DNA from: Phoronis australis
Lineage: Eukaryota > Animalia > Phoronida
DNA length: 64,000 nucleotides
Assembly: GCA_002633005.1 (NCBI GenBank)
Contig: NMRA01000108.1
Coordinates: 601,006 to 665,005, forward strand
Direction of reading: 5' to 3'
The notes under the pieces were generated by a model. It was not told the origin of the DNA, made no database searches, and saw only the letters and a program-made list of their open reading frames with translations. Of the stretch, positions 1,508 to 51,166 are shown one piece after another (within the stretch, counting starts at the first letter, position 1; every line of letters begins with the position of its first letter). The translations under genes and the position numbers were made by a program.

Positions 1508-1644
1508 TTACATGGCATTTTGAAAGAAGTCCACTAGAGTTGGCAGGTCATAGTTGTCCAGACATTCCAGCAACACAGGCACTTTGCTCTTGACATTTTG
1601 ACCTTTAAACTTGAACTTGTCAATAAATAGGTCAGTGATCATAC
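1508..1644 (-). CDS. BBS7: BBS7 last coding exon ([15 protein letters not shown]...FFQNAM*)
   Basis: ttcccag| acceptor, TAA stop at 1508-1510. Confidence 0.95.
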
Positions 1645-4600
1645 CTGGGAAAAAGTTGAATGAAGAAATATTATAATTACCGTGAACTGCAAAACGGTGA
1701 ATTTCACAAACGCTGACTACTGTCTTATTTAATGGCAACTGTAAATAAGGAATGCAAGGCAAAAATGTTCGACTTGCTAGGAAATGTTTTAAAAGTATGA
1801 TGCATAGTTTCGAATTGCAGTGGTACCCAACAAAAATCTTTTACAAACTGAGGTTATTAAAACTGGACATAGTGTGCAGTCACTTAGTCAGGTTTTTACC
1901 TCAACTGGAACAGAGAACATTGCAACTACAAAAGCATTCCAACACTATCTAATCAAATTAATTCTCAATGCAATTTACATGTGCAATTTCCATACATTAC
2001 CGTATTCTCCCTAATAACCACCCATGCCCCTACAAGCGCCTCCCACGCGCTTTCGGACTTTGCTAAAATAAGCGCCCAGCCCATGAACGTGTACGTGCGA
2101 AAAATGCCTTACCTGCAGTCCTAAAATTCTATAGTAAAATGATCATAATTTAACAGCAAAGTTTGACAGCAATGCACCACAATTTTGAAGAAAGTCTGTC
2201 ATAGGTTATAGATACGTCACAGAGCGTAAATATGACGAATCTTAGGTTCCGATTTCACCCGTTTTGGAGACAGGATTTTAACGCCTTGGGTTACAATAAG
2301 CGCCTCCCCTGAATCGAATTTTTCTAAGCGTCCTGGGTGGTTATTAGGGCTAGCTACCAGAAACGAGTCAGAATCAATTCAGCTTCCTTAGAAAAATACA
2401 GTAACTTTTAAAAGTGTAGTACCATAAAGTCTCTCAAGGTGGCATGGCTGTTTCTTGTACTCCAGCTGAAGTTTATCTGCATCTTCTAAGATCTGTCGAT
2501 ACTCGGGTGACATGAAACTGATGTCAGATTCATGGACGGAAAGTTCCTAAAGTTACAAGAAGTAACATCAGTTTTTAACACTGTGATGTAAATACTTCTT
2601 TAATAGCAGCTACACAAAATTATTCAACTGCGATTCTAACTCAAAAGAACACGTCCTCCCTCCTTACAACCTTTACAGTGATATTGTTAACAACAAATTG
2701 AAGTGCTTTTCAGCAAACACAGAACCTTTGCAGTTGCAGCTTAACGCTGAGCTAAATGTCACATGATAAAGGAACTGACAAAGTCAGCGGCTTTGATTTC
2801 AACGAATGTCTGACAGACAATGGCAATAATTTTAGATTTGTAATAAAATCACAAATGCAAAAAAGATTAGTATTTTAAGGCTCTGGTCAAAGCTAGTAAC
2901 TTCTAAACAAAAAGTTTATCCCATCCACCGATAATCCCAAAAATACGTTTTTGGTTGCAAAAATGACAATGTCTCACTCTTTCAAACATGAAATTCACAA
3001 ATTCAAAGGGACTAACTCCAACAAACAAGCCTCAAAATTTTCCTTTCCACAATAGCAATAACATAAAGATGAAATGAGAGGTCACCTGAGACTGATATAA
3101 CGTGGCTTAACACAGAATGTTACAGAAACTCGCAGCGTTTTGACATTCTTCTTCATGATAGAAAGTTTAAGGCAATGTTTGCCGTTACCTTCAGCGCGTC
3201 AATCAGCTGCACTTTCTTGGCTAGTAGCAACTGATACTCCAGCTTGGGATGAATGAGGCTTAATGTGTGAGGGATGGACTCATCGTTGATTTCTGTCAAA
3301 AGCAACAGAATCACGATTACTTGATGAATTTTTCACCCCCTAAGTTCATCAATCGTACAGTTTTAAGCACAAATGATTTACAAGTCTAGAACCATTGAAG
3401 ATAATTCAGAAATTTCTTTGATTTCACTAAATTAAAACCATCTCATCCTAGTTTCTGATTCAAGGGCAATGGATGTACGTCCACTCACGACAATTGATGA
3501 TAAAATTGCTTTACTCTATCTAACCGATTTAATAAGAGATCATGTGATGCAAAGACCGGAGCGTGCTCCACATGAGATTGGAGAAAGCATTAAAAATGCA
3601 AGATTTGGTGAGACAAAACTGGTGGCCAGGGTGTTATACTCAATAACACAACGTTAAGAGGCACTCCTTGAAAATACAATTTCATCACAATTGTCCTATC
3701 GCAAGCTACGACCTCTTGCAAAAAGACGACAAACAAACAATACGTTTTACCCGCTAACCTAGTGTTTGTTGAGCTTGGTGGCTTGGAAATGAACGTGTGT
3801 CAAGAATACTGCGTTCTGATTGGTCAATTAAGCTGTTACTCAAAATCTTGGTGATAGGTCAATTTGCAATCAGAAGCATCATTACAGGAAATCTCCGTTA
3901 TTTTTTGACAGAAATTGAGATTTCTCAGAGTCCAGACATAATTATCCTTAAACTATTTAAGTTTGACACTAACCATATGTTATGTCCAGTCGAATTTTCT
4001 TCTTGGTGGCTTCTTTTGTCAGAACATCTTTCAGAATTGAGATGGTGGAAATATTATCGGACCTGAACACAGCCTCGCCTTTTCTACAAAATGTATTAAT
4101 TCACACACTACCATCAGAAAAGTAGTAGTCATTTTCTATAAAATTATGCAAATCTTGTGGCAAAACCCCCAAAACACACAGAACAGAAAAATTCACATGG
4201 GAAAATATTGATGACTGATTTATCAACTGAAAAATCATTTTCAAGGGAGTCACAAAAATTGCAGCAATACCGAGACCTGCATCACGATGACTGATTTTGC
4301 ATTACACTAACACGGTCAGACGTTAAAGACCTAGAGCAATGTTCAATATTTGGTAAGCGCCATTTTAAGATAAGCCATCCCCTGAAATGACCTCTTCTCC
4401 ATCACGGAGGAAGACAAACACATATGGTATGACAATCCTAGTTCTCAACATGTCGGCCACAAAATCTGAGTTGAGTAGACAACACATCATGCATCAACGA
4501 TTATCTACAACAGCCATCCAGTTTAAAACTGCAACCAATGCCATAGTTTAATACTGTAACTGCCGTCAAGTTTCCTGGAGTGCGCAACTCACTTTTCAGC

Positions 4601-7600
4601 ATACTTCCACAATGGCACAATGGTATCAACCTGTCCAACTACAAGGCTAAATTGTTACCTAGTAAATCTCTAATTCCTATTGAAATAAAATACAAACTAG
4701 CATGACAGCAGTGAACAACAGTCAAAGAAATGTCTGACTGCAGGTAAACTGCAACAGAGTAGAGGTGTGGCACCGTAACAACAGACGTACAAAGAAGGTG
4801 TGGCACCGTAATAACATCATTATGTAATACTCACCTGTAAATACAACTGAGTTGTGTGTCAAGGAACGTGGACATGAACTGGAAGGATATAGAATCGCCA
4901 ACAGGGGTCTTCTCTGGTAATTCAGGGAGACAAAACGTCACCCATGAGTGGACCTCGGCCAAACTGAATGACCCTGTCAATTTCAGCGTGTTGTGAGGTC
5001 TGAAATGAAAGAAGCAGCAATGAATTTGATTAGAAATCAACTTCTGCAATATAAACGTTCACTTGGCTAAACTTTAACATTTAAAGCCACAAGAATACAG
5101 AGTCAGTGTAATGTTATTCCTTCCCACAATCCCCCGGTGCTACCACAACTGTACAATTACACTGTAAGATTTTGTAAAATTAAGTTCTTGAAAGAGGATG
5201 AAAAAGTACGCGTCAAGTGTAAACTTTAAGGTACAGCCATATCCCGCACAGTCAGTCTATTTAATTATTGAAAAGTTCATTATATTCTACATTGATAAGA
5301 AATGCATTCATTTCTTCATCCAGGTATTACACATTAAGTGCCTGCAAGAGACTGGAGTGCGTACATAGAGTTTTACTCCCACAATATGGTTCAAGTCTTA
5401 CAACAGGACTCAGAGGAAACTGGATTAAAGTTTTTCTAGAATCTAGCAGATGACCTTCATAATTACTTATAAGTGAATTGTCTAAACATGTTTACAATCC
5501 TTGTTACAAACTTAAAGAACTAATGTAGTTATTATAAAAAGTGTACGATACACTCAAGAAATCTATTATAAAATGTGTACGATACACTCACAAAATCTAT
5601 TATTTATCGTAATCTATTTTGCCCGGGGTACGCCACGAGCTATGTTGCAGAGTAAAACAAGAGGAGGATTGCGAATATTGTCATTTATTATGACGTAATA
5701 GATAAAACTAACTAAGACTCTGCAAGATGGGCATGCAAAAAACGCCATAATGGCAGCACGGAATGCTGACATCGCCCATTGTCATTGATGCGGTTCCTGT
5801 TTGTTTGCAATGACTTGAAATGTTTTCACACCAGGTGGGGTTATTAGCTAGTCCAACCGTATAGCCACTGGGTGCCACGCATTAGCTTAACATATCCGTC
5901 ACTTTTCAAATTCACAAATTATTGTGTAAATGTATAAAAGCCCATCTATTAACGAAAAAAGTCTTTACCTGTCTTCATTAAATACATGCGTTCTTTGATG
6001 TAAGGACAAAGGCTTGATTGCATACTGTTTACACTGACATGTCTTTGGCTGTAACCGAGGGGTCACGTATGCCTGCAGCATGCCGTATTGACCCTCGATG
6101 GAGCGAATCTTCAACTCCAGACGAGTGGTGTTGGCTTGACACCTATAGGTGGCCAGGAGAAAGTTACCTTCCTCTGGGTTACAGGCGCTGTAGCTGACCA
6201 CTGCTGAGTTCTTGTCCACATCCAAGAGGTCGATGGGTACATCGCTCTTTAAAACAAATTCATTAATTATTTTTTCCCAATAATGTCTACTTCAGTAGAC
6301 ACTTTAACCGCTATGCGTATAAGTAGCAATTAACTATCAACAACAAAATACCTCATGCAACTGTTCACACGAGTAGTATTTCTAACTTGGTAACTAATGA
6401 GGCATACAAGTCATTTTTTATCTAGATACATCAAGACCAGCCTCCCGTTCAGTAACGCTAGGACCTCGCTAAAAAGCAAGACTTCGCGAGATTACATGAG
6501 ATATTGCCGTGCATTTTAAATGAGAACACATGACTTTGACTAGGTTTTAGCTAGGTCCTAGCGAAGGTCCTAGTGTCTACTGAACGCACGCCAGATGTTG
6601 ACTCAACAAACACATTTGAGTAGCCAAAAACACCCAGATACAAAATGCTACTTGCAATCATTCACACGACATGTGCAGGCATGTGAACGGGCAATACCTA
6701 CAACACATGCGAACGACATGTGCAGGCATGTGAACGGGCTATACCTACAACACATGCCATAAATAAGTGGATGTGTTGTTTCCACATCCTGACCACCAGT
6801 TCTGCTCACAGACAAATCTTAACAATGGAATTAAGCGTTTCCATCCTGTTACTTTTTCCGCAAATTCACAACTCAAGAGCAAATAGGCATTAAGACCGCT
6901 TACACGCAGCCATCATGTCAAATTCCAGATCACTTTGATTGATTACTTTTGGCGTACCCTGAAGACTGTCATTATGTTACCACACGAGCCCAGTGATCAG
7001 CTCACCTGTAGCAGAACGTTGTCAATGGCCATCTGCACTTCCAGACTGAGAGTGTAGCTAGCGTCCTCTTTGTTCAGAACAAACTTGTCGTTGATGTTGA
7101 AGTATGGCACAGCTGAGATAGCCTTGCTATCCTGTGACGTCTGCTGGTACTTCTCTCGCTCGCACAGCACCTTCTGCTGAAGTTCTTCCAACTCTTGTCT
7201 AAATATTTACAAAATAATCTGACAAATTCGGAAAATGCATGTTCTGATGCATTCGGTTCATCTCAAATGAAGGAATGGTGATAATGTACTTGCACGAAGA
7301 ACATAATTGAAAGATGGCATCATACGACTTGGGATATCAAAACTTTTGGACTTGACATTTTTCAAGGGGCAGAAGCTATTTCCCGAAATTTAGATATCAA
7401 TATTATACATTCACAATGATCAAGTCTTAGCCAAGTAATTTTCAGCATCAGAAAACAAGGACAATTAAGTAAGGTTCTGTAACTTTTCTCAATTTTACAT
7501 GTACCAACATGTACTCAAGCACTCTTTATTTTTCATTACAAACATTGCCACAGACTCGTAATACTTCTGGAATTGGTTTACATAGAAAATGACCACTTGG

Positions 7601-10600
7601 TATTCAACCCTAATTATAATTTGATTAAGATGCAAAAATGACCAAGTAAAGGCATACAAAAGTACCCCGATATTGGTATTCACACTTTACAAGAAACTCC
7701 ATCTTCAGTTGTGCATATTCAACAGTGCAAAGACTTAGTATTAATGCTAAATCTGTGCTCAAGTTTAGGAAATTAAACATTGAATGACTTTCATATGACA
7801 CAACATATTAAGGTTATGAGGACTCCATCGACATGTCCGTGTATTTAGCCATAAAAGTATTACTTTCTGGGGGCGGAAAGTCAGGCCCTGTAGAATTTGA
7901 AATTCTTACTTTACAACAATCTGTTTTTAGGTTGAGTGACTAGTATGTCTTTTTGATAAAATAGGTAAAAAAGAAACGGGTATATTGATAGCAAAATAAT
8001 GGTATCAATAAAACTTGGACAAATTACAGTAATTTGATATTGATGTTCAAGGTGAAGTCTTAAAAATGTTAGTTTTTATTTCGTTTTCGTTTTATGCATA
8101 TTTTTGGTTCTTTCATGAAAATCATAAAAATCCCATTTTTAATAGCCTCTCATACAAAATTGCGTACAGTGCATAAAGAACGATAGTATCTGAAAGTTTC
8201 GAATAAATCTGATTGGCCATTTCTGAGATTAGGCGTTCCGAAGCTCGCCAAATTTGGACATTTTGCTGGGGTCCTACAAAACCTTAAAGTGCAATCTGTA
8301 CACTGGACCTCTACTTAGAATATTAAGAACACATCCATGTCAACACAACAAACACGAATCAATTGGTGCCAAAAATTGTGAAAAAAAAGGTCTAGGGAAG
8401 AAACTGCTACCAATAAATACTGTTTGTTTCATTCAAGAGTATCGAGACAACCAGGTATACAGGAGCTACAAAATGGGTTGAAATGCGTTTATGACTACAT
8501 CCCAAATGGTATGCTTCTAGAGATGTTTATCAGTACCAAACAAGAGCAACGCGGAGCATTGAAATGCGCCCATGAATGCAACGCAAACGGTGTGCTTCTA
8601 GGGCTGTTTATTTGTTTCATAAAAATGGCCACTAGATGGCGCAAAAACGTCCAATTCATCTGACAACGGGAACATGCCATCACTTCTTTAGCAGAAAGCT
8701 ATTTACCAAATTTCAAAAAATCTGTCAAAAGAACTTCAGAGAAACAAAGGGAAACAGAAAAAGTGAAATTGCCATTATGGGCCACAGCGTTCAAGGGATC
8801 TGTATGAATGACGTCGTCGTCTGTTGTTAGCTTCATGTAAATACAATTACTAATAAATAAAATTTAATAAAGATCCTGCGGTGGGTTTAGGAGATGCAGC
8901 TATGGGCGCAAAACAAAACAAAACTACCAGTAGGAAGCGCCACAGTAGTCGAAGTCATCACCGTCAACCGTCCTCTTCACACTAAGAACATATATGCACA
9001 TTTTCAAAATAATCCTTAGAATGGTTTTCTTGATTGAGGGGTGGATTCCAAAAAACAGACTCAAAATCAGCAAAAATGGCCACTACATGGTGCAAAGTAC
9101 CTCGATTCCATCTAAAAACAGGATGATAGTATCATCTCAACAATAGATGCCCATATTCCGAATTTTCTGAAAATCCCTTGAGCACCTTGAATATACAGAG
9201 GTAAACCTAAAAAACTAAAATTGCCACTAGGGGCACATCAGTAGTCAGATCAGTCAGAAAGTTGTTGTCATCCATAGACAACATCATTTGCTAAATTTAG
9301 TAAAGATCCTGCAAACCGTTTAGGAGATACAGCCATGGGCGCAAAACAAACAAAACTGCCACTACGAGGCGCCACAGTAGTCGAAATCATCGGAAAATCA
9401 TCCTCTGAGTCGTCCTCTTCACAGTAAGAGCATACAGGTAAATTTTCACAATCATTTTTGAACAGTTTGGTTGACAGAGGGGTGGACGCCAAAAAAACAG
9501 ACTCAAAAACAACAAAAAATGGCCACTAGGTGGCGCAACCTGCGTCAAATCCATAAAAAATGGGAGGATATCGCCATTTCACTAATAGATGTCTATATGC
9601 CAAATTTTATGAAAATACATTGAGGACTTTTGAAGATACAGAGGGTAAATGTAAAAAACTATAATTGCTACTAGGGGGCACACCAGTAGTCAGATCCATC
9701 CGAAAGTCTGCTCATGTTGTCCCATCCACCAAAGGAACACATGTGCAAAATTTCATGAACGTATGTCCAAGGATTTGGAGATAGAGCAGTGGACGCCGGA
9801 CAGACGCCGAACAGACGCCGGAGAGACACCCGACAGACAGAGATGACGGCATAACGCGCCCACATTAGGTGGTGCAGAATATGTCAAACCTGCGTGGAAA
9901 CTGGAATTAAGCCTTATTTTCTTCCTTACAATAACCTAGTTGCAGAATTTCATGAAAATCCATTTAGGAATTCCACAGACACCGAGGCAAACATAAAAAA
10001 TAAAATTGTCACCATGACGCACAGCGGAAGTCAAATCTGTCTGAAATAAGTTGTCATCTGTTGCCAAGTTCACATGTTTGCACTTGTCCTATTTCACAAA
10101 GAACCTTGCAAGGAATTTGAAAGATAGAGTTTTGGATGCAAAATGCCACTAAGGATGGGGCACCACATAGTGATACCCATCCCAAAGTTAACATCCAGAA
10201 TGAAGTAATGCTGCTGTCAATACCAAAACATCTGAAAATTTTCTTAAATGACCTTTTCAGCAGTTTGGTGAATAGAGAAGTTGACACAAAGACAGACTAA
10301 AAAATAAAAATGGACACCGGGTGGAACAGAAAACATCTAATCTGTACAAAAATAAAAAATGTTGTCTACTTAATACTAGTATTTGCCATATTTCTTAGAT
10401 TACTGTCAAGGAACTCTGAAGATACTGAGGTAAACAGAGTTTGGTCAATCCGAACATCTTCGTCTCGTCATCAGTCGCCAACTTCACAGGTACACATTCT
10501 GGAAAATCGCATCAACATCCGGAGAGGGATTTGAATATACAGAAGCAGATGCTGCACAGACACCTGGACTCCCAGACAGAGATGACGGCAATATGCATCC

Positions 10601-13600
10601 ACGTTTACGCGGGCGCATAGAAACTGTGATATGAATATGTAAGAGCTTTAAGTGAAAGACTGGACAACACAATTCAGGTACAGGATTTATTGGGTAATTC
10701 ACCACCTTGAAAATGAATGAAAAAATGGAAAATGGAAAAATGGAAAAAAAGAAATTACTACTAGATGTTGAATGTGAAAAATGAAGGGAAATATACGAAA
10801 CTTCCTCATGTCATGTCATGGAATTATTTTTAACATTTGATAGCATAAAAATCTTTCACTAAAAGTAACACAAAATTAAAAAATAAGAAAGAAATAAAGT
10901 AGTACATCTTCCACAGCATACAGGTGACAGGAACGATCCACGCTCCCAGCAATCTTTGTGGCGAAAATTAACAGGTAAGTTGCCCCATTCCTTCTCTCGT
11001 TTGCTACAAGCCAAGCAGACTTACTTCAAATGGACAATTTTGATTTGTGTCCCTTCGTCTATCTTGACCTGTTGGCCAGGGCCAGCCTCTTTCTGCATGG
11101 GCTCAGTAGTCAAGCCAAAGATCCACCCTAAAATGACCAGTGTTCCAACAGAGGGAGCTACTTACAAGGAAGGTCAGTTCACACAACACAGAATGGTGGG
11201 TGATCACTCTCGTCATGTGACCGGCATGAGGTTAAGCAGTCGATTGGGTAAGACACCAGTTTTTGAATCAACTTTGTTATCTAAAGCGACAGTGAGCACA
11301 CTTTGAGAGGTCAAACCTTCAAATTGAGATATGATTATTTTGTCAATGGAAATAGGAAAAAAAAATCAAGATTCACACAGCCCATAATGCAATGCCGGAG
11401 AACTGCTAACCCCCACCAATGACTTGAAAGGCCATACTCATCCGGTTTAATGACTGACGTTTGGCTTACCGCAAACCATCCAAAATTTACAAGCTTTTGT
11501 TTCTAAGTGCCCATGCTTGGGTTACCACCGAACCCCAATAAAGAATTTATTGACTTAGAATGTTTGTTTGTATACGCCCGTCTCATCAGCATTTTAGCTC
11601 CCAAAAAGTACTGCAACTCGCTTACCCTTTGTCTTATTTGGATGACAAAATGCCCATACTATCTTACTCTTCACTGAAGGAGACATAAAATGGTGCGGTG
11701 CTTTTGGCCTTTATTCATTCTAATATTACCAAATTCAATAAGCTAGTGCATAATTTATAAAGAAATTCACAGTACTCATAATGTTTGTATCCCCCAACAA
11801 TTGTTTCTAATCACTCATGCCTGGCTTTTACAGTTTCCAATTAAAACGCCCCGGGCAGTGACTCGGAAGAGTACGGTATTTCTTCAAACGTGAACACTTG
11901 CCATATGTTCAACACGTATGTCCCAACACAATAGTCCTGTAAGTGGCACAAAAACTGTCAACTGTCGCTTTATTAGAAAAAAAACTAATTAAAAAACATT
12001 AGATATAAATAATTGTTGTTGCAACTGGTTCAATGATTTAAAAGGTTGCACTATTTTTTTGGATAATCTGAATGTAGTGTAGACGATTTGAGTATCAAAT
12101 AGTGTTCCCTAAGTCACTTGACTGAGACGAGTTCACACAACACCAAAAGATCTACCACATTGCAAGAGTTCCAGAGCAAGAATTCACAGCGCTCAATAAC
12201 AGAATGTTGACGGTTAATAAAACTGGCTTGACATCATTTAAGAAACACACCCTCCACCTTGACAGGTCCAACTACGCGACTGTTAGTGCAAACGACTCGG
12301 GAATGTCACTGCATCACAACGATGACAGGATACCTGAGTTTGAGAACCTGGTCTGAAGCAAATTTGCCGACAATAACAATGGAATTTCCGGACCTCACGC
12401 CCTCACCATACACCGGCTCAGTCGTACAAGACCAGATGCTCCCTATCACAACATAACGATGAAGACAAGTGATCATCTAACATCAAATTCTAAATACAAA
12501 ACGTCAAGGAGTATGACAGTCAGGAGTGGACAATGTGTGTTCTACAACAACCTCTCAAAAACTGTTACCGTGCACTGTAAATGTCAAGCCCAACAGCAAA
12601 ATAATGACAAACATGAATAGCTGTAAACACTCAGAGTTATAATCAAGCTTTGATCGATTTCAGTTAGGCTTGTCCCAGCAGAAAAGATCAATCAAACTGA
12701 CAAAGGAACAGCGTACCACTTGCTATAGATACAAGGTCAAGTATCCCCAGAAAGGTTCTCATATAGGAGTTGGCGGGAACTTGCTCTGAGGTTTGGGACA
12801 AAGAGGTGGAGAGTTGAAGCCAAAGGGGGGTACTGATATTGTTTCGAGCAGAGTTGTTTGATCTCACTTGGTGTTACTTTGGGTACTTGCTTTTGCCGAT
12901 ACCTCAGCAGTGGAAAAATACAGGGGAAATTTCAGAATGTTTCACCCCAGCTAGGTATTGCTTTGGTCTGGATTTCAAAAATACATTAGCACCTCCTATG
13001 GAATATTTGGAAGAGAACCCCTGGGGAGTGCTCCCATATCCATCTCGCATGAAAAATTTAGACCTACCAAGCTTATTTCAACAGCAGGACACGCTACTCA
13101 TGTTTGACAAGACTGTAAAGACATCAGAAATAGTGGCGTGCTGACACAATAAGCATGCCTGACCACGGGCCAGTGGTCACCTTTACCTGAGCACAAACAC
13201 CTTTTGTTGGGCCAACTCACTGGACACAATGACCGTGTCTCCATCCCGACACACTGGGTCGTAAAGGTTCTGTGTTGTGAAGCTAAACAAGCAGCCTATA
13301 CACAGTGATATATCGTTTATCACAATGAAAAACAACAAAATAGTATTAAGGTTATCTCCAACCTTATTCACAAAAAGTGGCCATTTTTACAATATTTCAC
13401 TTGTGTCTAGCAAAATACCTAATCTTCATTCTCAGGGAACTTCAAATACAAAATACACACTAAGTAGCGAGAAAAAAAAATTTAGCAGAACCACCTTGGA
13501 ACTTCACACCCGCATGGATATTTGTTTACTACTTATCCAAGGTCAAAGGTTAAAGTGCTTTCAATTAAATCGAATCTCCCGCCAGGTACAGAACAGCTTC

Positions 13601-16600
13601 GGATGCCGTCAGTCCTTTCATTCACAAAGTCGCAATAACATTGAGCTAACGAGGTGTACTTATGATAGAATGGTGCCGGGGAAAATGAAGACAAAATGTA
13701 GTTTTGATCCTAATGGAGTTGTGCGTCTACATGCATGCCACCGTTGGCGTTGAAAACGAAATCTACGAGTCGCCTCAAGCCTCTGTGGTCATGAGCACAG
13801 AAAGTTGTGAAAAGAGATAAATCCTCACCCTAATTCCTTACTTCAATAAATAAGTTGACATTTCGATGTTTCGATTTCATGCTAACAACATACTTTAACC
13901 ACCGATTCGATTTTTGCAATCCATTTCTTTCTTGGTTTCGTATCAATATCCCAGCATGTGACGTGTACAGCCTATGAACTGTGACCTACTTAATAGAAAG
14001 TAGGGCGTAAACAACAGTAAAAGTTGGCTGGGAACAATACGTCTATTTGAGGTTTTAATGATAATTAAGTTAGTTACGCAATGCAAAATCAGTTAACATT
14101 GCGAGTGAATGTTGCAATAGCTAACATAGTTAAGGATTGTATAGGTTATGTGTACCAAAACAAGTTTTCACCGAATAATTAACCAAAGACTTTGAGATTT
14201 TCACTTGGCCCAGTTTAATCGGCTTTTTCTCGGCTTCGGCAAATCGACTTTATTTGAACTTAGGAACACTAGTTCTCGAAAACGGCTTGATGGATTTCGC
14301 TGAAACTTCCCAAACGTAATATTCAGTCATCAATCTCAAAAACGCTGTTAGGATTTTTAATATAAAGGCCTAGTTTTTGCGTAATGTGCCAAAGATAAAT
14401 ATAACTTCAATTTTTTACAAAAATACCTTACGTTTTACAAGTTGATTTGTCATAGAAACCAAATTAACAGACTAATCGAAAATTCCTAACAGCTTTTTGA
14501 GGTAACTGGTGAAGTTTTCATTTAAACAAGGTTTCATTAAAATCAACCAAGGATTGTTTTGTTATGAAAGTATCTTTCTTAAAAATGAAATTTTGACTTA
14601 AAAAGGTTTTTACGAAAAATAATAATAGCACGTAAATACAAAAAGTATATTTAATATTTCCTGGTTCTGTTCTTTCAGAAAATATACTTTTACTAGTTGA
14701 CAAAGCTTAGTTTTTTGATATCCGAGTTAGAATGGAGGCCACTAAATAAGGTTGGAGATGACCTTAAGTAATCGATAAACATTCTCAAGGTCTTATGTAG
14801 CTGTATAACCATCAGATTGTGATGTAAAAAGCAACTTTGAGTTCAAGACAGGGACTCATCAGGCGACCGTCATGGCCATCCATGAGGAAGCCAATATTAA
14901 ACAATGACAGTTTGGACAGCAGGGCCAAGAGAAAAAAAATGACCAGTTTCAAGTCAAGCTAAGCCAAAATGACTGCTAAACAAGGAAACTTAACATTTCT
15001 GATAAAAAAAATTATCGAAACCTACAATTCATTGTTTAATGCCATAAATATTCAGACATAAATCAAGATCACAAACCATTACCGCCTATTTTTTACCATA
15101 AATTAGACACTATCAGCACATGCTGGCAGCCAGGTTTTTCGGGAGAATACCTTTCTTTACTGTGACATCAGGATGACCTCACACGGAATCCCTGCATTTG
15201 ACGAGTGCCAATCTCACAAATTTGGACCCCCACTTTTTAAATGCTAGATGAGTCCCTGGTTTAGCATAAAGCCGTGTCCTCATAAAGTGCGCCAAACACT
15301 AGTTTGTCTTGAAGGTTACTAATCTTCATTGATGGTCTAAGTGTTATTTACACACAAACATTTTATTTAATGTGTGTATGAAAAAAAGCAATTTTGAGAA
15401 GTCCAAATAACAATGTCGGGTCAATTTCAGAATGTAACACTTGACAAAGTAAATCTACCTCCATAAGTAGCGCAGACAATTTCGTCGTAGCCTGAGGTGA
15501 TGACCTGACCTCCTTGGATGGAGGTCACACTTTCACTGGACACCTGCAACAACAAAAATTACAGTTCGCCATTCTCTTTCTGAATTGTGTTAAGCTTCAT
15601 CTTACGAAATGCCATTTGAGTTAATATTGAGTCCTACATCGAATAGCCCTAGATAGCCAACGTCTGAGTAAGACGAAAGCTAAGAAACGAAAAACAACAC
15701 CTACAAGTGCCTTTCAGACCACAGTATAACCACAGATAATATAGATAGATATGTCCACTTTCCTAATTTCACAACTCCACTTTTTGTGGCCTTTTTGTGC
15801 AAAATTAAATCAAATCTTCAACACTCACCAATGATTGAAATGACATGCACATTTTTTTAACCGAACCACTAACGCCTGCGTAATTCGGTCACAATTTTGT
15901 CCTTTCTAAGATTAGAAATGATTTCTGGACCATGACTACTCGAGACTAGCCTCAAGAAGTTGACAACAAAATTTCTCCTAAAGCCAGTTCTTCCTTAACC
16001 CACAAATCACTTCTAATTTCAAGATGGGGCAATAGGTGGCAGTAATAAGTGGCCTAATTCAAAAGTTGGTATCTTTGAACGTGCAGGTGGGCAGCGCATT
16101 GGGACTTCAAATATTAAACATTCTGCACAGAAAACAATGACAATGCGCTTCTGCTACACAAGATCAATCATCAGTGACTTGCCTTTGAAAGAGAGTTGAC
16201 TAACACTACTTGGCAATATATGAACACTTTGGGAAAGAGACATTTAAAATTTAATGGTCCAGTGACCATAATAAAATGTTAAGACAGCATTTAGATGATT
16301 GACATTTATGTTACTACAGGATTTGTTGACAGACACGTACAATACAACAGCAGTACTTGATTGACAAGATTTGCTGTCTCACACTCACACTATGCAGCTA
16401 CATAGTTGATTGATACTTACACTACTATAAGATTTGACTGACACTTATTGACTGACACTTATGTTAATACAGCATCAGTTGACTGACACTTTAGTGCAAA
16501 ACAGTTGGCACTTACATTACTGTAGCGCAGACTTGGTTCGTCAGCCTCATCATAGCTGTAAGCCTCCACAATGCCGTCGTCCCGACCCACAATCAAGTCT

Positions 16601-19600
16601 TTGATGCCATCAGCTGTGATGTCATAGTTGTCCAGGCTTAGTACACCTACAACAACAGAGGGCTCTGTCAACGCTGCAGCAGCTCAGTAAATTCATAAAC
16701 AAGACAGTATATAATCTTTACTCACTGAGCTCAGTTGAACTCGCTACTAGACAAGTAATAGAGAAAGGCATGAGAGACTTGGAAACGCATATCAGTTTCA
16801 AAATATTGTTCATCAAATTCTCAGAAGTCTCACAATTTAACTAGTAATGATCAGAAGTATTGAAGTGATACAAATAACACAAAACTAAACCCTTACCACA
16901 AAGACTTGCTTTACACATAGGAATGTATTATCTTTTATTAAAGCAAAAGCATTATAAACAAAGTGTCAAGTGATAAGGCAACATAGCAGATTTTTTTTAC
17001 AAGGAGAGATGAGCCAAGATATCTAACACACGTATACAATAATCAAACTTCATTGAGGACCAGATCCGCCACATTTGAATAACTTCCCAGACATTGTTGC
17101 ATTCTGGAGAGCGAGCTTTTCATGAGTGAAGTGAGTCTTCACTACTTATCGTCATACCAATTTTCTCACGAGTGCCTCGGGTCTACCGAACAAGTCCCAC
17201 GGTAGCATTGCATTTAAATCGGGGAAGAGAATGCTTCGCAAAAGTGGCGAGTATGAACAATCATATGCCTACCTCCATTTCGCTTTTCATTTGGAACCTC
17301 CCATCTGTGCATTGGAGAAAGCCTACAAAATGATGACAACAAGAATGAATCACCACCACCTGCACACAAAAGCCAATGTGACAATAAAGATAAGAACTTG
17401 CACGTTAGTGTTGACTGCACAAAATGTTTCAGCACTCTTATGTTCAATGAAAAACTTGCAAGGCTGGGCGTCTGCTACTGAATGCGACACTTCTTCAAAG
17501 TTAAATTGATTCTTGCAAGCTTTTGACTTGACCTAATCATCAATATATAAGGGCTTTAAAATTTAATTAGAATTAAATTAAATTGTACACTTTGATACCT
17601 CATCTACAAGTCAAGGACAATTACTCATCTCTTACTAAAAACACTCACTGCTACCCTGAAAGTAGCCATAAACCACTGGCTGAACATAAACTTCTCAACC
17701 ACTCACAACAAATCATAACAGCAATATCTGTAACACGGACACACATACACACACACACACTAACTGCACCAAGTACTCTACAAACAAATTGGACCTCAAA
17801 CTTTGAATATTAACACTATTACCTCATAGGTTCGCCTCTTGCAAGACTTAAATTCAGCATAAAAGCAAGCAATAGGTCACAAAATGCAAAATAAGATGAT
17901 CACAAAATGCATTTTTCTTCCAAATATCAGAAAAAAGTTTCGAAATGGACATCAAAAGTGACCAATCAAAATATCATTTCTAAGGCAAATTTTAACTACA
18001 GAATAACGTTTCCATCTTCAGTTGTTAACTTTAGCAGTTAATTGCCAGTCTCTTCCACTCATGATGGACTGCCACTATGACGATAAATTCCACTAGCATC
18101 CTGCCGTCATGACGGGGATATCCAGGTCATTTTGTGATGGCATATACTGTGCCAGGCACAAAACTGGCTCATATAGTTGTCTCACAAGTGGAAAAATTGG
18201 TAAAAGTTCACCCAGAACTAAAACGATATCATTAGTTAAGTCCACACATCGAATTATCCAGGAACAACTTGCCCCAAGAAACTGTGTTCTCACCTGGTGA
18301 GCTGAACCAGTCCTATGCGACCGTCAGACGTGCCATACAACACCTCATCACCGTTCTCCCCTCCGTCATTACAATAGAGGCACAACACCACGGGTGGTCC
18401 TGGCACCTCAACCTCGTAAAGTAGATCCGAGTCCTGGGAACGGAGAGAGTGAGAGAGTTCTAATAAAATAGGAAACGATCTGAAGGATACATATTAAGTG
18501 TCCATTCTTACATCTACCACGTTCACAAGATCACTTCGATACACAGGATAAGGGTACACTCCCAGTGCTTCACCATAACTGGAAAATACCATGTTCCTCA
18601 AAGTGGTTCACTCATCTTGAAATTTAACACTGGAAGATACCGTCTTACGGTTCTAGATCATGCAGACCTTTTATGTCATGGGTGTACATTAATAGCATTG
18701 GTTGTTCGTTTTTAACCCACCACAGCATCAAATCCATCGACATCACAAATAATTATATCAGAAAAACAATTTTTGGGACCTGGAAATGTTTTTAACTTAG
18801 TTCACACATAGCTTCTAAACAAGATAGCTTCTAACAGACCTCGGAAGCGGAGTTCTAAAAAAAGCCTAAATTTGAAGCGTAATCAAGTTATGAAATCCAA
18901 ACTGAAATAGGAGCAACCAAAACAAGACAGGAGCTGAGAATTTCATACAATTAAAGCAGCTATAAACTCTCTATTTCTCAAAAACAACATTCATTTAGAC
19001 AACTCAACGTGGCGAAATTGGACTTGAAATGTTCCATAGTTGTATCAGATGTGATTTCTGGTCTTCACTATTGCTCGAGACCAGACTCTACAAGTTGGCT
19101 CAATTATCACAGTGGGTCATTTTATGCATCCAGCATCATTTCAAGCACCAACTGAAAGCTCTTTGAAGTCCAGAAATCGCATCTCATTTGAATAACGAAC
19201 AAGTTGATATCAATTTTACAGCGGTAAGTGGTCCAACTCTAAAGTTAGTTTCTTTGGTTGAATATAGGTTAATAACTGCTTTAAGAGATGAAGCAAGCGA
19301 AGGTAACTAGATTGCGTGCCACAACCCAGCATGCAGCCATTTTATTCTACGTCTACAAATCTACAAAGCTACGATCTTTTACTTTTAAGTAATTAAGAGA
19401 ATTCAAAACACTTTTCATTATTGCTTAAACACTCTCATATGATTCACAAAGTGTAATGCTTTAATAAATAAATCAAATAGATGCTAGCATGTCGTGCAGC
19501 TATAGACGACATTTCAAGCGATGCGCTCTTTGTCAAGGGTATGATACAGACTGCCAAATAGATGAATATAAATAAAATCATAAAGGTGACCGCATTGTGG

Positions 19601-22600
19601 TATACAATAGACAGCATGAACAATGCTTTGTAAAGGTTCCTAACAGTTCAAACAGGAAACAAGACGGCTGAACATGAGAAAGATGGGAAGTCAATTTCAA
19701 ACTACGTCTATGCTACTGTCAGTAATGATGCAGAACTAATTACATGGCATGAATTCAAACTTCCAAAGAAAGGAAAAGCAAAGATAAATAATTTATAATC
19801 ACTCAGTTGTACCTCAACAGCCTTGTATTTTACAGCAAAGACAAATTAAAAAAAAATGTTTACTTAAGACTTTACAATCGACCAGATTGCTAACGAGTAC
19901 AGAAAAGAAGTGGATAATTGACGGTATAAGAACGCGGGAAAACAACCAGGGGCCAGGGTCAAACCACTTGATTCAAAAATGGACCAACTGTGAGGTCAAT
20001 TTCAAGTAAACTTCGAAGTTTGTACTCGAATTACGTGATACGATTGATTAAGTTTCGAGTCGGAGTACGAGTTGAGTCTGAGTTCAGGGATTAGCTCCTG
20101 GTCCCAGGTCTTACGTGTTATTGAAAAAAGAAAACAGAGAAAACAAAAGTTCTCAGTATTAGATGACTGAATGATAGGTTGGAGAACGTTACATGTGGTA
20201 AAGAAAACTAGAGCAAATATCTTCACTGTAAATTGCATGTTTAGATTGGTAGTAGAGCATAACAGAAAGCACTTAGTGAAATGCCATCCAATTTTGAATA
20301 TCTTCACTGACACTTAAACTGTGGGAAAAGTCTTATCTTTTGACAAAAATATAATTAAATTTGTTTTTAACTGTTATAAGAATATAAGACAAAAATCCAA
20401 AAGATGTTGAACTTGAGAGTTAAGATACAATTTGTATGTGAAGTCCTCGTTCAACACCTTGGTGTGGCCTGCTAGAATGCACTGGCGGACACCTGTCAAA
20501 AAGACACGACAGAAACATTTATACCCGGTCTCACGTATTTTGACTTTTTCATCTTTTATTTTAACACCTTGTACACTTTCAAACAATATGTAAATGCAAA
20601 TCCCAGCCAACATATACCTGTAAGACTCGCAGGACACGGTCCTGACATGCCAGAATTGGTGTGACCTCGGGGACTCGTTGCACGGGCAAACATATCAGGT
20701 CGTTGATTTTGTCACCTGACAGGAAATAGTGTAGGTCCTTGCAGTCACGATAGTGGTTGAAGATGTAGTTACCAGCTACCATTAGGTCTGCTCCCTCCAC
20801 TTGCCTGGGTAAAAATAGCAGTCAATAGTAACAACCCGAATTGAACTCTCCTCTTTAGCGGAGGTAGAAAACTCATTGTATGACACTGTAAAATGTTTGT
20901 AAAATGTTGTACATCAATAGATTCTCAACTCTGACATTTTTCTTGCGAAATTTCCTAGCAAACTCAGCTTCCGGTTAGTGTAATGCGACGGGAAATTCTT
21001 GCATCTATTTTACTGTCCAGTGTAGCAGACAACGTACTTGCTGGAAGTAAACCGTGCTATGTCTGTCAGGTGATGTTAGTGAACAGTGACATCACGGCTT
21101 ATGCGTAAGATCAAAGATTTCCTCCATTGAAAATGTACAGAGTTGGAAGTCCACATACTAGTCTATGGTCAAATGCAATTCTTTTGTGCGTCGAGTCTCA
21201 GTTTTAACTAAACGATAAAACCGTCAGTACCTTGAAAATTTCAAGTCCAGTTTCCCGACCTAAATTACCAGACAACAGTAATTTTCAAAAATGTTGTCAA
21301 AATCTGTTCTCATTGAAAATCAAATTTCTAAGTTGAAATTTCTGGTCAATTTTCAGATGACTTTAGCAATCTTCCTCCGCCTCCCTTCCGAGATTTTTGT
21401 AAAACTTTGATGAACCCGAACAAAACCCGTCAACTTCTTTCGAAAATTAACATCACGAATGTACATTCACAGAACAGGCCTAATTAGAATGAAGTGTAGC
21501 TTCAACAGGTTACAGTTACTTCCCCTGTATATTCCCTCCACTCACATGGATCGTATGCTCTCCGTCATGTTGGTGTCGAAGCCCAAGAACTGCTTCCCCT
21601 TCTTGTTAAACCCCTTCACCTCGGGTCCGCATGCCACAAACATCTTCTCCTTAACACTACCAGCGGGACCACCAAGATCAAGCCGGCTTATCTTTGTTCC
21701 AGGAAGGGTTTTGAAGGAATGCTGAAACAATTAACGTTCAACATACAAGATTATGACTCCAGTTCACATGAGGTTTAAGTCATACAATACTCCAATAACT
21801 GAAGAGATGCATAAATAACAGCTAACTAGAGGTGAAAACTGGTACATATTTTGTCGTTGGTGAGAGAATGAGATAAATGCAATCACTCAAAGCTTATCTC
21901 CTTTGGCAGCCATAAGTTTCATCCCCTTGTAGTAAATGAATTTGCGTAGCCAACCTTTCAACATTAGTACCACACTTTTGCTTCCCTGAGACAAGTTTGA
22001 AAACATTTCCTTAAACATTTTTTGACACTTAATTAATTGGAGTTAAATTGTAACAATTCTTCTGCTCCATGTTTTCATCTTTTGTATTATGTTTTCGTAT
22101 TTAACCTCGACAACTCAACAACAGGTGATTGTTGAGTTACCACACCCTTTCTCCAGTTAGGCCACTATGGGACCTTATCATCTCTAATGCAGAAGCAATT
22201 TCCCTAACGACAACACACCAACACTTCCTCTGTAATAAAATGTCTACTCGCATTTTGATGTGAGACGAAACTAGAGTGATTTGAGACTTAAATGAGAGAT
22301 AAATGCAAGGTTGACCAACCACTGAACACTGTTGCCAGCTGAACAAGTAGATCAACACTGGACAGCATATACGACCTGCAAACGCAAACCCTGTACCACG
22401 AAACCCGACAGCTCGTTCAAACGCCATTCATAACGATGGCATTGCTCCTGTTTTGATACCACACTATCTTGTTCAATTACAAAGGCTTGAGGAATCGGAT
22501 ATTAGACCTGGGATATTGCCCAAAATGCACTGGGTGGGATAAGTAGACTAATACTTAACTTTATTCTGGATTATACAGACAAAACAAGTTGATACTTTCT

Positions 22601-25600
22601 TCTCGAAAATTGGCAAAATTTCAGAGAAAAAATTTCAAATGATTTAGTTTTATTTATTGCCTAGTTTCCTTCGAGGTTGCAGCCATAATTTCAACGAACC
22701 CGGACAACTTTTGACTAACTTTTTGTGAAAACAGAAACCCAAATGGTTTACGATACAATACAGCAGACACGCAATTTAATTAGCTTAAAACCTCAAACCA
22801 TGAAGTACGAGATTATACTGTAATTACTAAGAAGCTCTTGGAAATTGCCAGACTGGCATAGTTCCATCTCATCTTGCATAGTACCGTACTTTGATTTTGA
22901 AGAAACCAAAAGCATAGACAGAACACACGTGGCGAAAACAATTTTAAAGCTGCAGCACTTTAGTCTACGGTGACAGAAGGTCCGTGTAAAATAGAATGTG
23001 ACTTTGTAAAATTGTTATTATGTTACTTTGCAAAACTGCCATAAACCCATCTTCCGTCACAAAAGCATTTTTATCTAGACAATTTACTGTTACGAAACTG
23101 GGCTCAAATTGTTTCTTAAGTTAGTCAAATGATTTCAGGGCTTAGAAAAATTGCAAGTTCGTTAGTGCTCGAGACCAGGAATTACAAGCTGGCTTGTGGC
23201 AGCTTGTCATTTTATTTGAGCAATAATCAGATGTCACACCAAAAACCGCTTCTCATCAGAGTAAGGAACAAGTTGGCACCAATCTTGTAGTGGAAAGTGG
23301 TCCAAATCAAAATTTTATTTCTTCAACAAAATGCAAGTTTACTGCCACTTTATGTGGAAATTCTTTCGTAAAATTTGTTGTGGCACAAAACCCCAGTTAG
23401 TTTCATACATTTAAAATACACCAATAAGTCCCTTAACTGTCATGCTGATGTTTATACATGATTTAATGATTAATTTTATTGTCTGTAGGTCTATTTCTTG
23501 ATATTTTTAAAAATTTTGTTTCTGTCATTTCTTTATAGTTTCATGTAACAGACAAGACATCAAATTTGTCTTGACACACAGGTAGTAAATCAACAGGTGA
23601 AAAGTTTTGTAAGATTTTCGCCAAATAACTGTGAATAATTATTAATGGTATCATTGCTACTTTTCATTATTAGCTTCACTAATTAAATGCTGTTCACACT
23701 TTGTGTGTCAGGTACGTTTGTGTGAATAAAGATTTCCAGTTGTAACAAAACATTTCCTACTCACCCTCTTTCGTGCTCAATAGCTAGTGTAATTTGAAAG
23801 ATTTCTGCCGTACAAGTTTTGTGGTAAATTTGTAGAAACTCATGAAATTATTTAGATCATAAGCTCAACATCTCATTATAGAATTAGTTGATGACCCTGA
23901 CAATAAAGAAAAAGGTAATTATATTAAGTTTTCAGCCTAGGATGGTAAATAAAGCAACTGAAATCTTCAAGTCATACTGAGTGTGCTTTAAGAGGCCAAA
24001 AACTCAGTAATTAAAGTACGTTTTAAAGCAGCTACAAACCTTTTTTGGCACAAAAATAACTTTTCATTTCGAACAATTACCATTACGAAAATCACCTCAA
24101 ATCGTTTGTTACATTTCAAAGTCAAAAATTGGTTTGATTTCTGTAAAGAATCAGCAGTTCGTTATTGCACGAGACACGACTCTACAAGTTAAACAGTCAT
24201 GACATGTTGTTTTATTGCATGAGACAAGACTCTAGAAGTTAAACAGTCATGACGTGTTGTTTTATTGCATGAGACAAGACTCTACAAGTTAAACAGTCAT
24301 GACGTGTTGTTTTATTGCATGAGACAAGACTCTACAAGTTAAACAGTCATGACGTGTTGTTTTATTTTGCCGGGCATGGTCTCGAACTATAACAAACTGA
24401 AAGTTGTTTGTAAAACCAAAAATCACATCTTATCTGAGAGAGAAACGTGTTGAGACCAATTTCATAGTGATAAGTGGCCTAAATAAGAAAATCAGCTTTT
24501 ACATCAGAATGTGGGTTTGTTGCCACTTATAAATGCCAAAAGCATCGCTTCTGACACGGACATGGCATGATCACGCAAAACGGAAGAACATTTGAATCGT
24601 TTCTGCTGACAAATGTAAAATCAAAAAATGACTATAGTCATTGAATTATACGCAATAAATTGTAGATAGAACTCATACTAGTTGTGCTTATGAGTTGGGC
24701 ACAATCAATATGACTTACGAAAAGATGCTATAGCCAAACAAGTCAGAAACAAACAGATCAGATAGACACTAAATAAACTTATTTTTAATGTATAAACTCG
24801 GGTGATTTCATTGACAGTGCTGCGGATGTTTTTCAAATGCATCGTGGGACGGTGACATCACGTGCATTTAAAACACGGAAACAACACTGTGGCTTGAGCG
24901 CAACAGGATTGAAAGCATGACTGTGTCCTCTGCAACATGCTTTTTGGTGCGAGTACGACTAAGAAAGTCGTCGTACAAAAATACAAGAGCAAAAGGGAGC
25001 CTCAAAATGCAATGAATATTTAGCAAACCTTTTTTGCGGAAGATTCTCCAGACAAGTGTCGCCAGGTCACACTGCAGTTAAATCTTATCACCTATAAGTC
25101 AACTCAGTCAGATTGCATGTCACCAAGTTACCTGCGATGTCACCGCGTGTTTACGAGATGACAATACTCCCACAGTGCATTTGAAAAATGATATCAGTGT
25201 TGTGGATGAAACCCTCAAATCCATACACAATTNGAGACAAGACTCTACAAGTTAAACAGTCATGACGTGTTGTTTTATTGCATGAGTCAAGACTCTACAA
25301 GTTAAACAGTCATGACGTGTTGTTTTATTGCACGAGACAAGACTCTACAAGTTAAACAGTTATGATGTGTTGTTTTATTTTGCCGGGCATGGTCTCGAAC
25401 TATAACAAACTGACAGTTGTTTGTAAAACCAAAAATCACATCTTATCTGAGAGAGAAACGTGTTGAGACCAATTTCATAGTGATAAGTGGCCTAAATAAA
25501 AAAATCAGCGTCTATATGTGGGTTTGTTGCCACTTACAAATGCCAAAAACATCGCTTCTGACACGGACATGGCATGATCACGCAAAATGGAAAAACATTT

Positions 25601-49600: not shown

Positions 49601-50237
49601 CTACATAAAAGTAACATCATGCGTATTATTTTAGCAGTTTACCTTACACCGTTGGCGTAAAGCATACCGCTCGGAACATTCGTTTTTTAATAGTTGTGTA
49701 CCCTCTATATTTCCCATTTTTATTCATTTTCTTCTCAGAATTTCAAATTGAAATTTAAGTTTCCGTTTACCTTACTTGTTGTCAAAAGTGACTTTTGGTA
49801 ACCGTCACTTACCCCTACAAATTCGTTTTGAATTGTTCTTTCTGCGCTTCGGTAGAACTGGTAGTTATTAATTACATAAGGTAGCCTCATAAGTTGACTT
49901 GATCCGACGGGTCAGTTTTGTGCACCAAGCAGGACACTGTGCATCAACAAACTGTGCACACATCTACTTTAAAGGCGAAGGCAACCTTTTTTCATGTCAT
50001 TTTGAGCTAAAATAAGGTTGGTTGGTTATCCTAGACATATTTTCCACTTAATTACAGCTTTTCGTAATTTTGTTAATTACTCGTCCGCTACTCCGGAAGT
50101 GACGTTTTAGGAGGCAAGCATTTCGCGCCAATTTCTTTTCATATACTCTGACTGTGAGAGCTGCCGACTCAGTCATTGTTCTACCTCGGTTGCGTTAAGT
50201 TCCGTCGTCGTTTGCTTTCATTTACTAGTCAGTCAAC

Positions 50238-50684
50238 ATGCCACACTGTTGCTGCGTACCGGGATGTACTATTTATCGTCTCACGCGCGCTTTGGGAGTA
50301 CCTTTGCATCGCTTTCCGATGGATGACACACTTCGCCGTACTTGGCTCGTTCGTGTGAAGAGCGCAGCGTTACCCGTCCACGCAACGTACAGAGCAGTCG
50401 AGAATTACCGTGTGTGTGGCAAACACTTTCTGCCGTCCGATTACGAAAGGGATTTGTACGCTGAACTGATGAAGGTCCCTGCGAAACAACGCCTGAAGCA
50501 GGATGCCATTCCGTCTGTGTTGATTCCCGGCAGTGCCCCGTCGCCACCCCCAAGATGTGCGTATTTGAAGCGAGAAGCCTCGCGAGCTGTGGCCAGTACA
50601 GTGACTGGAGCCAGTGGAGGCACTTCATCTACTGTCACCCGTGCCTCAACGTACCCCAGAGCGTGCCATTCCTGGAACCAGTAA
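50238..50684 (+). CDS. THAP zinc-finger N-terminus of the transposon's transposase
   Basis: MPHCCCVPGC...LHRFP...W...VCGKHF...RLKQDAIPSV is a complete C2CH THAP signature with AVPTI-like box; an acidic/Ser linker ending KFIV continues in another frame up to the gap. Confidence 0.85.
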   Translation: MPHCCCVPGCTIYRLTRALGVPLHRFPMDDTLRRTWLVRVKSAALPVHATYRAVENYRVCGKHFLPSDYERDLYAELMKVPAKQRLKQDAIPSVLIPGSAPSPPPRCAYLKREASRAVASTVTGASGGTSSTVTRASTYPRACHSWNQ

Positions 50685-50848
50685 GTGATTCGCCCTGTGC
50701 TGTTTTCTCCAGCCCAGAGCCTCTAAGCAGCCCTGCAGCGATATTGAGTAGTGGGAGTGATTACAGGCCCAGTTCGACACCCAGTGAAGAGGACAGTTCG
50801 TCGTCCAGTGAACAGATCGGTGAGCCAAACTTTGATAAGTTTATTGTG

Positions 50849-51166
50849 NNNNNNNNNNNNNNNNNNNNNNNNNNNNNNNNNNNNNNNNNNNNNNNNNNNN
50901 NNNNNNNNNNNNNNNNNNNNNNNNNNNNNNNNNNNNNNNNNNNNNNNNNNNNNNNNNNNNNNNNNNNNNNNNNNNNNNNNNNNNNNNNNNNNNNNNNNNN
51001 NNNNNNNNNNNNNNNNNNNNNNNNNNNNNNNNNNNNNNNNNNNNNNNNNNNNNNNNNNNNNNNNNNNNNNNNNNNNNNNNNNNNNNNNNNNNNNNNNNNN
51101 NNNNNNNNNNNNNNNNNNNNNNNNNNNNNNNNNNNNNNNNNNNNNNNNNNNNNNNNNNNNNNNNNN
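50849..51166. other. Assembly gap (318 N)
   Basis: Run of N. Confidence 1.

Follow-up and report, generated by a model that had tools for sequence, protein, structure and literature searches.

Mutually exclusive exons (MXEs) are a well-known class of alternative splicing; what is new here is a case in BBS7, at the loop that corresponds to the ARL6 contact of the bovine complex. In 60% of human MXE clusters, the lengths of the exons are not divisible by three, so that joint inclusion shifts the reading frame (Hatje et al. 2017, PMC5740500). Like the clusters described there, the three versions of exon 10 in the BBS7 gene of Phoronis australis are neighbouring, homologous exons of similar length and the same frame, whose ends are embedded in a strand and a helix. 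They differ from those clusters in being very diverged (~25% identity between exons 10A and 10B) and in that junction reads in P. australis were obtained for exon 10C only. The main text of that survey contains no occurrence of BBS7.

Within the BBSome, the nearest described case is exon 2a of BBS8/TTC8, a photoreceptor-specific cassette microexon of 30 nt that adds 10 residues in vertebrates (PMC7917623), and thus a splice form of a BBSome subunit limited to one ciliated cell type. In contrast to exon 2a, the BBS7 case is the exchange of a homologous exon, located at a known ARL6 contact and found in lophotrochozoans. BBS7 itself appears only in a table in the retrieved text of that article. 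A structural counterpart is provided by the bovine BBSome:ARL6:GTP complex (Singh et al. 2020, PMC7018513), where the region corresponding to exon 10 likewise contains the loop, residues 320-335, that adds a strand to ARL6. The difference is that, among the matches listed, deuterostomes and cnidarians have a single version of this linker. The passages of PMC7018513 that deal with the bovine-type BBS7 linker mention no isoforms of it, and the word 'isoform' has no occurrence in the retrieved text of a 2023 review (PMC10356136). The earlier note on this DNA had reported no known description of mutually exclusive exons in BBS7, and our search of titles and the beginnings of abstracts, mostly in the open-access literature, found none either.

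All coordinates are positions in the window, the whole 64,000-nt stretch of P. australis DNA that was analysed (contig NMRA01000108.1, 601,006 to 665,005). The three exon-10 copies proposed in the earlier note were recovered in full, including their coordinates, strand, AG/GT ends, lengths (109, 109 and 103 nt), open frames and peptides (Table 1).

Table 1 Coordinates of the BBS7 gene, the exons around the switch and the neighbouring element.
Feature	Position	Strand	Evidence
BBS7 gene, 17 coding exons	1510..30871	-	ATG at 30871, stop codon at 1510 end; AG/GT exon model, open 716-718 aa
Exon 9, common upstream exon, 85 nt, donor GTAGAT	15459..15543	-	Reads at 10C (16 + 7) have their loose ends on its 3' end
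Exon 10A, diverged alternative copy, 109 nt	13187..13295	-	AG/GT-bounded, open frame; selection and similarity scores
Exon 10B, diverged alternative copy, sister of 10A, 109 nt, donor GTATCC	12334..12442	-	AG/GT-bounded, open frame; selection and similarity scores
Exon 10C, ancestral-type copy, major spliced form, 103 nt	11025..11127	-	Bovine BBS7 match; junction reads to exons 9 and 11
Exon 11, common downstream exon, 193 nt	7006..7198	-	Reads at 11025 have their loose ends on its 5' end
Likely non-autonomous DNA transposon, 1.4 kb	13346..14767	.	23-nt inverted ends (96% complementary), TTAA at both ends

The gene was identified as BBS7 from a search with exon 12, which matched 695 proteins, the named ones being BBS7, with up to 93% identity over this exon. 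The full-length model is 73-77% identical to lophotrochozoan BBS7 proteins, the highest values being those of Lineus (77%), Owenia (76%) and Lingula (75%). The Lingula relative contains the four BBS7 Pfam domains, has a fold like that of 6VBU_7 and follows the domain order propeller-hx-GAE-platform-hairpin. Each exon-10 copy has a length of 1 mod 3 and, therefore, only the inclusion of a single copy yields full-length BBS7, as the earlier note had claimed. In the 17-exon model built from the coordinates, any one copy resulted in an open protein of 716-718 aa, while none, any two or all three copies led to a stop at codon 354-357. The copies lie next to each other, are similar in length, share the same frame and contain no in-frame stop. 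The mutual exclusivity of 10A, 10B and 10C is thereby established as a constraint of the reading frame.

To follow the use of the copies, three raw RNA runs from one study were mapped on positions 10950-13340, with ~18-19% of each run being read and a junction threshold of 3 reads per run. Of the mapped reads, those with a likeness of 99% or more amounted to 30/37, 18/28 and 4/14 in the three runs. The junction between exon 9 and 10C was found in 16 and 7 reads in two runs and fell below the listing threshold in the third, while that between 10C and exon 11 was found in 12, 5 and 3 reads. The 23 listed exon 9-10C reads bypass both 10A and 10B. No junction of 10A or 10B reached 3 reads per run in any of the three runs, which are shallow and come from one study. 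Exon-joining reads, which MXEs lack unless the join shifts the frame, were not listed between 10A, 10B and 10C anywhere in 10950-13340 in the three low-depth runs; in BBS7, any such join would shift the frame.

The read depth followed the same pattern, with values of 21.7, 11.6 and 1.8 over 10C across the three runs. The depth over 10A was 0, 0.9 and 0, and that over 10B was up to 3.4, 1.4 and 0, close to that of the neighbouring intron (2.0-2.4 in one run). Based on the junction reads and this depth pattern, 10C is the major form in the sampled RNA, with minor use of 10A or 10B being possible. Of the junctions that the earlier note had proposed from exons 9 and 11 to each copy, those of 10C were thus observed on both sides, but none was listed for 10A or 10B in the three shallow runs. 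The duplicated, frame-exclusive copies that it described are borne out, whereas its suggestion of three BBSome variants from one gene, for example for different cilium types, goes beyond the splicing of 10C that was observed.

We then considered whether 10A and 10B carry the marks of coding sequence. Their alignment is gapless, and the identities at the three codon positions are 12, 23 and 9 of 35. Silent sites are saturated (pS 0.85, with pN 0.50). For comparison, neutral divergence was simulated by placing 61 random changes on either copy and keeping the stop-free outcomes. The BLOSUM62 sum of the 10A-10B alignment is 48, against neutral values of -1.4 (from A) and -2.6 (from B) with an SD of 12.5; a score of 48 was reached by no stop-free simulation starting from A and by a share of 0.0002 starting from B. 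The flanks of the two copies match at 21/60 and 13/60 positions. Taken alone, the amino-acid identity of 9/35 (~25%) is borderline (p about 0.05), and the stop-free state is a weak signal, expected by chance in 22-28% of cases. The GC content of both copies is 0.50, like that of the other exons, while introns average 0.38 and 2.5% of 750 intron windows reach 0.49. Scored with a small matrix compiled from splice sites of this gene, their splice sites lie inside the range of the constitutive exons, the acceptor of 10A having a modest score of 2.4. As judged from these comparisons, 10A and 10B appear to have been constrained as protein long after duplicating, and may have been silenced very recently.

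To place the arrangement among related animals, we took the best 120 of the 695 exon-12 matches and opened 30 clusters, viewing up to 15 members of each. Unnamed Logan/JGI records, fragments without the segment, the chimeric models P0030, P0081 and P0138 and the odd models P0102 and P0176 were kept outside the tally. Among the matches listed, 48 lophotrochozoans were found, 24 of them with at least two records, and all 24 (22 molluscs, Lingula and Lineus) have two or three versions of the segment. The matches listed also include 41 deuterostomes and cnidarians, of which 8 have at least two records and none of these 8 has a second version, this negative side of the sample being thin. Same-species isoforms that differ in this segment alone occur in Haliotis (3 species), Mizuhopecten, Ylistrum, Ostrea, Saccostrea, Mytilus, Mercenaria, Physella, Biomphalaria, Lineus, Gigantopelta and Lingula, the last with three versions. 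Two exon-10 segments are also found in Patella, Crassostrea, Magallana and Bradybaena, and three annelid species and Tubulanus have one version each, from a single record each. Searching by region with the X3 segment of Lingula gave just 2 proteins, both already in the set.

Most isoform records of the relatives are automatic annotations, and the isoforms have thus been present, unremarked, in such annotations of many molluscs, Lingula and Lineus. In addition, proteins of 713-733 aa with the alternative segment are encoded on Logan contigs of 2.2-3.5 kb in a scallop cluster (P0133) and an oyster cluster (P0189 and P0191). As a contig of this size encoding the full-length protein must be a spliced transcript, these records correspond to expressed alternative forms; among the relatives, transcript contigs of full length bear one version or the other. 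The mollusc segments comprise an upstream class, with a helix start of G-K/R-x-K-I and an L-R end, and a downstream class, which is nearer to the one exon that the outgroups have. The three chimeric models hold parts of both exons, and in them the alternative class precedes the major class, the order also seen in P. australis. The arrangement is thus conserved, more widely than expected, in 24/24 multi-record lophotrochozoans among the matches listed, and we are highly confident that a working exon switch exists in lophotrochozoans.

The same comparison revealed a second variable site near residues 221-231, where a propeller loop near residue 225 carries an insert of 4-16 residues in isoform pairs from Ptychodera, Lingula, Lineus and Ruditapes (P0070/P0141, P0064/P0143, P0062/P0146 and P0061/P0158). 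The alignments suggest a conserved microexon or an alternative splice site.

For P. australis, the reading we favour, with somewhat better than even confidence, is that 10C connects exons 9 and 11, with 10A and 10B as likely minor alternatives, restricted to certain tissues or stages, that would swap the likely ARL6 loop of BBS7. That 10A, 10B or both are still used in this species is, by itself, probable. Alternatively, both copies could be relics that remained functional for a long time and are now silent, leaving 10C alone in use. The restriction of the listed junctions to 10C is compatible with such silencing, as are the extreme divergence of 10A and 10B from all relatives, the insertion that ends 50 nt ahead of the 10A acceptor and the modest score of this acceptor. 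Both copies, however, keep their frame, length, splice sites, exon-like GC content and a strong signal of protein-level selection; the relatives express alternative forms (P0133, P0189 and P0191); and the RNA sample is shallow and comes from a single study. We consider silent relics rather unlikely.

The position of exon 10 in the protein was obtained by alignment and modelling. Exon 10C aligns with residues 313-343 of bovine BBS7 (6VBU chain 7; E 2.4e-05), and exon 10 as a whole maps to bovine residues ~312-346. As loop 320-335 lies within this range, the exon carries the whole ARL6-contact loop. In the AlphaFold model of Lingula X3 (mean pLDDT 79, 40-sequence alignment), the exon starts at residue 322 and runs through the strand of residues 323-328 and a loop modelled with low confidence (331-342) into a helix that spans 343-374. 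The Pfam propeller of this protein ends at residue 328, and its best fold matches are the BBS7 chains of BBSome structures. Exon 10 is accordingly modelled as the predicted last propeller strand, a flexible loop of ~16 residues and the initial turns of the hx helix. The earlier note had placed the segment where the propeller ends and the helical linker to the GAE domain begins, which agrees with the model, and near the BBS2-BBS7 interface, to which just the last ~10 residues belong; the part of the segment that diverges most corresponds to the ARL6-contacting loop of the bovine complex, not to the BBS2-facing helix.

In the bovine BBSome, loop 320-335 becomes ordered only on joining the edge of the ARL6-GTP sheet as an additional strand (PMC7018513). 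This contact comes from one bovine structure and is described as one that 'may stabilize' (PMC7018513). Across the exon-10 versions, the strand pattern and the helix end are kept, while the sequence and length of the loop vary most. In 10A and 10B, hydrophobic strand-like stretches (TVIVS and SIVIVG) replace QVKID in the loop, a change with a presumed effect on its function. As judged from the mapping and the model of the relative, the loop would be exchanged within a preserved strand and helix. If the strand that the bovine loop gains on ARL6-GTP also forms in these animals, such a swap could yield BBSomes that assemble alike and differ in ARL6 recruitment or activation, plausibly by ciliated cell type. 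We give an even chance to ARL6 engagement being the main property tuned by the switch.

A live switch might instead tune the hx coiled coil between BBS2 and BBS7, or the closure of the BBS7 propeller, and thereby assembly or head flexibility rather than ARL6. The exon does reach from the last propeller strand into the BBS2-pairing helix, of which it supplies the first ~10 residues, and the mollusc upstream class is most conserved at the helix start (G-K/R-x-K-I, with its L-R end). These are, however, the elements kept across all versions, the variation being concentrated in the loop, which is the ARL6 contact in the bovine structure. We regard tuning of the helix or propeller as unlikely.

The BBSome is treated as one fixed octamer, and here a core subunit varies, across several phyla, exactly at the segment touching its activating GTPase; this position makes the switch worth following up. 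Should the forms differ in ARL6 binding, they would constitute a natural set of variants for probing the BBS7-ARL6 contact, as well as a route to cilium-type-specific trafficking in heavily cilia-dependent animals. In its widest form, which we put forward tentatively and consider less likely than not, a lophotrochozoan switch of the ARL6-docking loop, older than the mollusc-brachiopod split, would build BBSomes with differing ARL6 dependence for different cilia (for example, motile cilia of sperm or larvae versus sensory cilia), the P. australis lineage having enlarged it to three settings, two of them radically remodelled. The tissue pattern is testable at once in oysters, mussels, scallops and snails, for which large public RNA sets exist.

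By default, exclusivity would be enforced by competition between acceptors together with the frameshift and decay of frameshifted messages, a likely mechanism that follows from the frame constraint. Steric hindrance, which requires a donor to lie within ~50 nt of the branch point, is not supported, as the introns measure 744 and 1206 nt and the AG-free zones just 32 and 28 nt. Branch-like motifs are predicted within 60 nt of the acceptors of the exon-10 region. Arrays of MXEs selected by RNA pairing at docking sites, such as those of Dscam, contain more than two alternative exons. The BBS7 array is similar in this respect, but, in contrast to them, its tested flanks form no duplex better than shuffled sequences: with 200-300 nt of flanking DNA from this species, none of 6 flank pairs surpassed all 30 shuffles (best 3/30), and no shared inverted repeat was present.

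The 10B donor GTATCCTG (12325-12333) is, in our assessment, close to the donor consensus of the minor (U12) spliceosome. A motif search found no CCTTRAY near the acceptors of exon 11 or 10C, the nearest being at -615. A CCTTGAC is present at ~12505, 67 nt upstream of the 10B acceptor; another AG follows the motif at ~13 nt, and the arrangement may be due to chance. The 1.4 kb element listed in Table 1 ends 50 nt before the 10A acceptor, where its end creates a branch-like CCTTAAT motif at -56. Reads on the element fall on both strands and contain many other letters. We take its ends to resemble those of Kolobok-type DNA transposons.

The frame constraint would also permit 10A and 10B to act as poison exons that, when joined with 10C, shift the frame and lower BBS7 levels through nonsense-mediated decay. 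Double inclusion does lead to an early stop, and such messages would be rare in RNA-seq. Poison use has no need of amino-acid conservation, though, and this is present in both copies; moreover, no joints of 10A or 10B with 10C were listed, and the relatives have full-length transcripts with a single alternative exon. Poison exons are very improbable as an explanation.

Open segments with splice-like ends are common in this region: between exons 9 and 11 there are 77 stop-free AG..GT/GC candidates of 85-130 nt in the right phase. For this reason, all 77 were scored against 47 exon-10 segments of other animals, using the mean BLOSUM62 score. Exon 10C ranked first (72.6), followed by 10A (18.0) and 10B (16.9); ranks 4-6 were overlapping variants of 10A and 10B, while the best unrelated candidate scored -0.6 and the median was -22. 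In pairwise comparisons, the score of 54 between 10A and 10B and that of 18 between 10A and 10C were each matched by 0/2000 shuffles, and that of 22 between 10B and 10C by 6/2000. The copies thus display the sequence similarity expected among MXEs, which is weak by HMM for 10A and 10B.

In a profile HMM of the 47 segments, 10A scored just 2.3 bits and 10B 0.8 bits, with one unrelated candidate at 2.4, which identifies 10A and 10B as remote copies. A six-frame HMM scan of the whole window detected 10C alone, and not 10A or 10B. A protein search with 10A and a few upstream codons gave 3 candidates, none of which scored; its weakness is explained by isoforms being buried inside 90% clusters. No DNA-level duplication covering the flanks of 10A and 10B was found. 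Both copies have diverged far more than the alternative exons of relatives; neither has the conserved W behind the first G, nor the G-K/R-x-K motif that marks the upstream class of molluscs. With class profiles, 10A obtained 4.2/1.0/1.4 bits and 10B 2.0/0.8/2.0 bits, so that the profiles place neither in a class. Chance intronic open frames or an assembly artefact, for which the 77 formal candidates and the near-zero HMM scores might speak, are already largely refuted and close to negligible, given ranks 2 and 3 of 77, a 10A-10B homology beyond 2000 shuffles, the codon-position signal, flanks without DNA-level duplication and the same switch in 24 species.

The upstream-class exon of pulmonate snails and Patella (P0056, P0067, P0135 and P0199) also lacks the conserved W after the first G, having C, S or Y instead. 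That of the pulmonates is, in addition, shorter and rich in lysine.

The history of the duplications was approached with trees of the protein and of the exon. A quick tree built from 38 proteins without their exon-10 segment placed P. australis outside the gastropods and bivalves, its nearest neighbours by path being Lineus, Owenia, Ruditapes and Lingula, without resolution among them; this fits a lophotrochozoan that lies apart from the gastropods and bivalves sampled. Lingula X3 scored best with the upstream-class profile (21.8 bits versus 11.0 and 5.8), and 10C with the outgroup type (58.9 bits). A 34-column exon tree set 10/10 upstream-class exons, together with Lingula X3 and both 10A and 10B, apart from the remaining 24 rows (SH-aLRT 97), with long branches for 10B and Lineus X1. 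In AU tests, an origin of Lingula's three copies within Lingula only was rejected (p-AU 0.015), while a window-only origin of 10A, 10B and 10C (p-AU 0.28) and a mollusc-only origin of the mollusc pair (p-AU 0.093) were compatible with the data. This combination makes an old duplication common to molluscs and brachiopods, before their split, likely. The split of these two groups is more than 500 million years old.

Due to the long branches, the membership of 10A and 10B in this old duplication is tentative. The two copies group as sisters. Later duplications probably took place in single lineages, giving rise to 10A and 10B in P. australis and to X1 and X2 in Lingula. The switch would hence be common to molluscs, Lingula and Lineus; one duplication or more likely pre-dates the mollusc-brachiopod split, and later ones are lineage-specific, a history that is partly documented by these trees.

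Several other features were observed in the window. An intronic repeat at 8500-10800, with a periodicity of ~442 nt, showed an RNA depth of up to ~800 per bin, on one strand and with 90-95% likeness, and is an expressed repeat family. In BBS7 intron 3, a 1 kb tandem duplication at 24221-26240, with copies that are 96.5% identical and meet at a single N (25233), likely corresponds to two haplotypes assembled in tandem. The region 49969-51526, which contains a THAP-domain ORF (50229-50684; Pfam E 4e-14) beside an N gap and between 171-nt inverted repeats (95%), is likely a DNA transposon. Finally, an open frame of 833 codons at 53516-56017 (+) encodes a Ser/Thr-rich, mucin-like protein with internal repeats and without a Pfam match, which likely possesses a transmembrane helix and a cytoplasmic tail, as predicted from its sequence.
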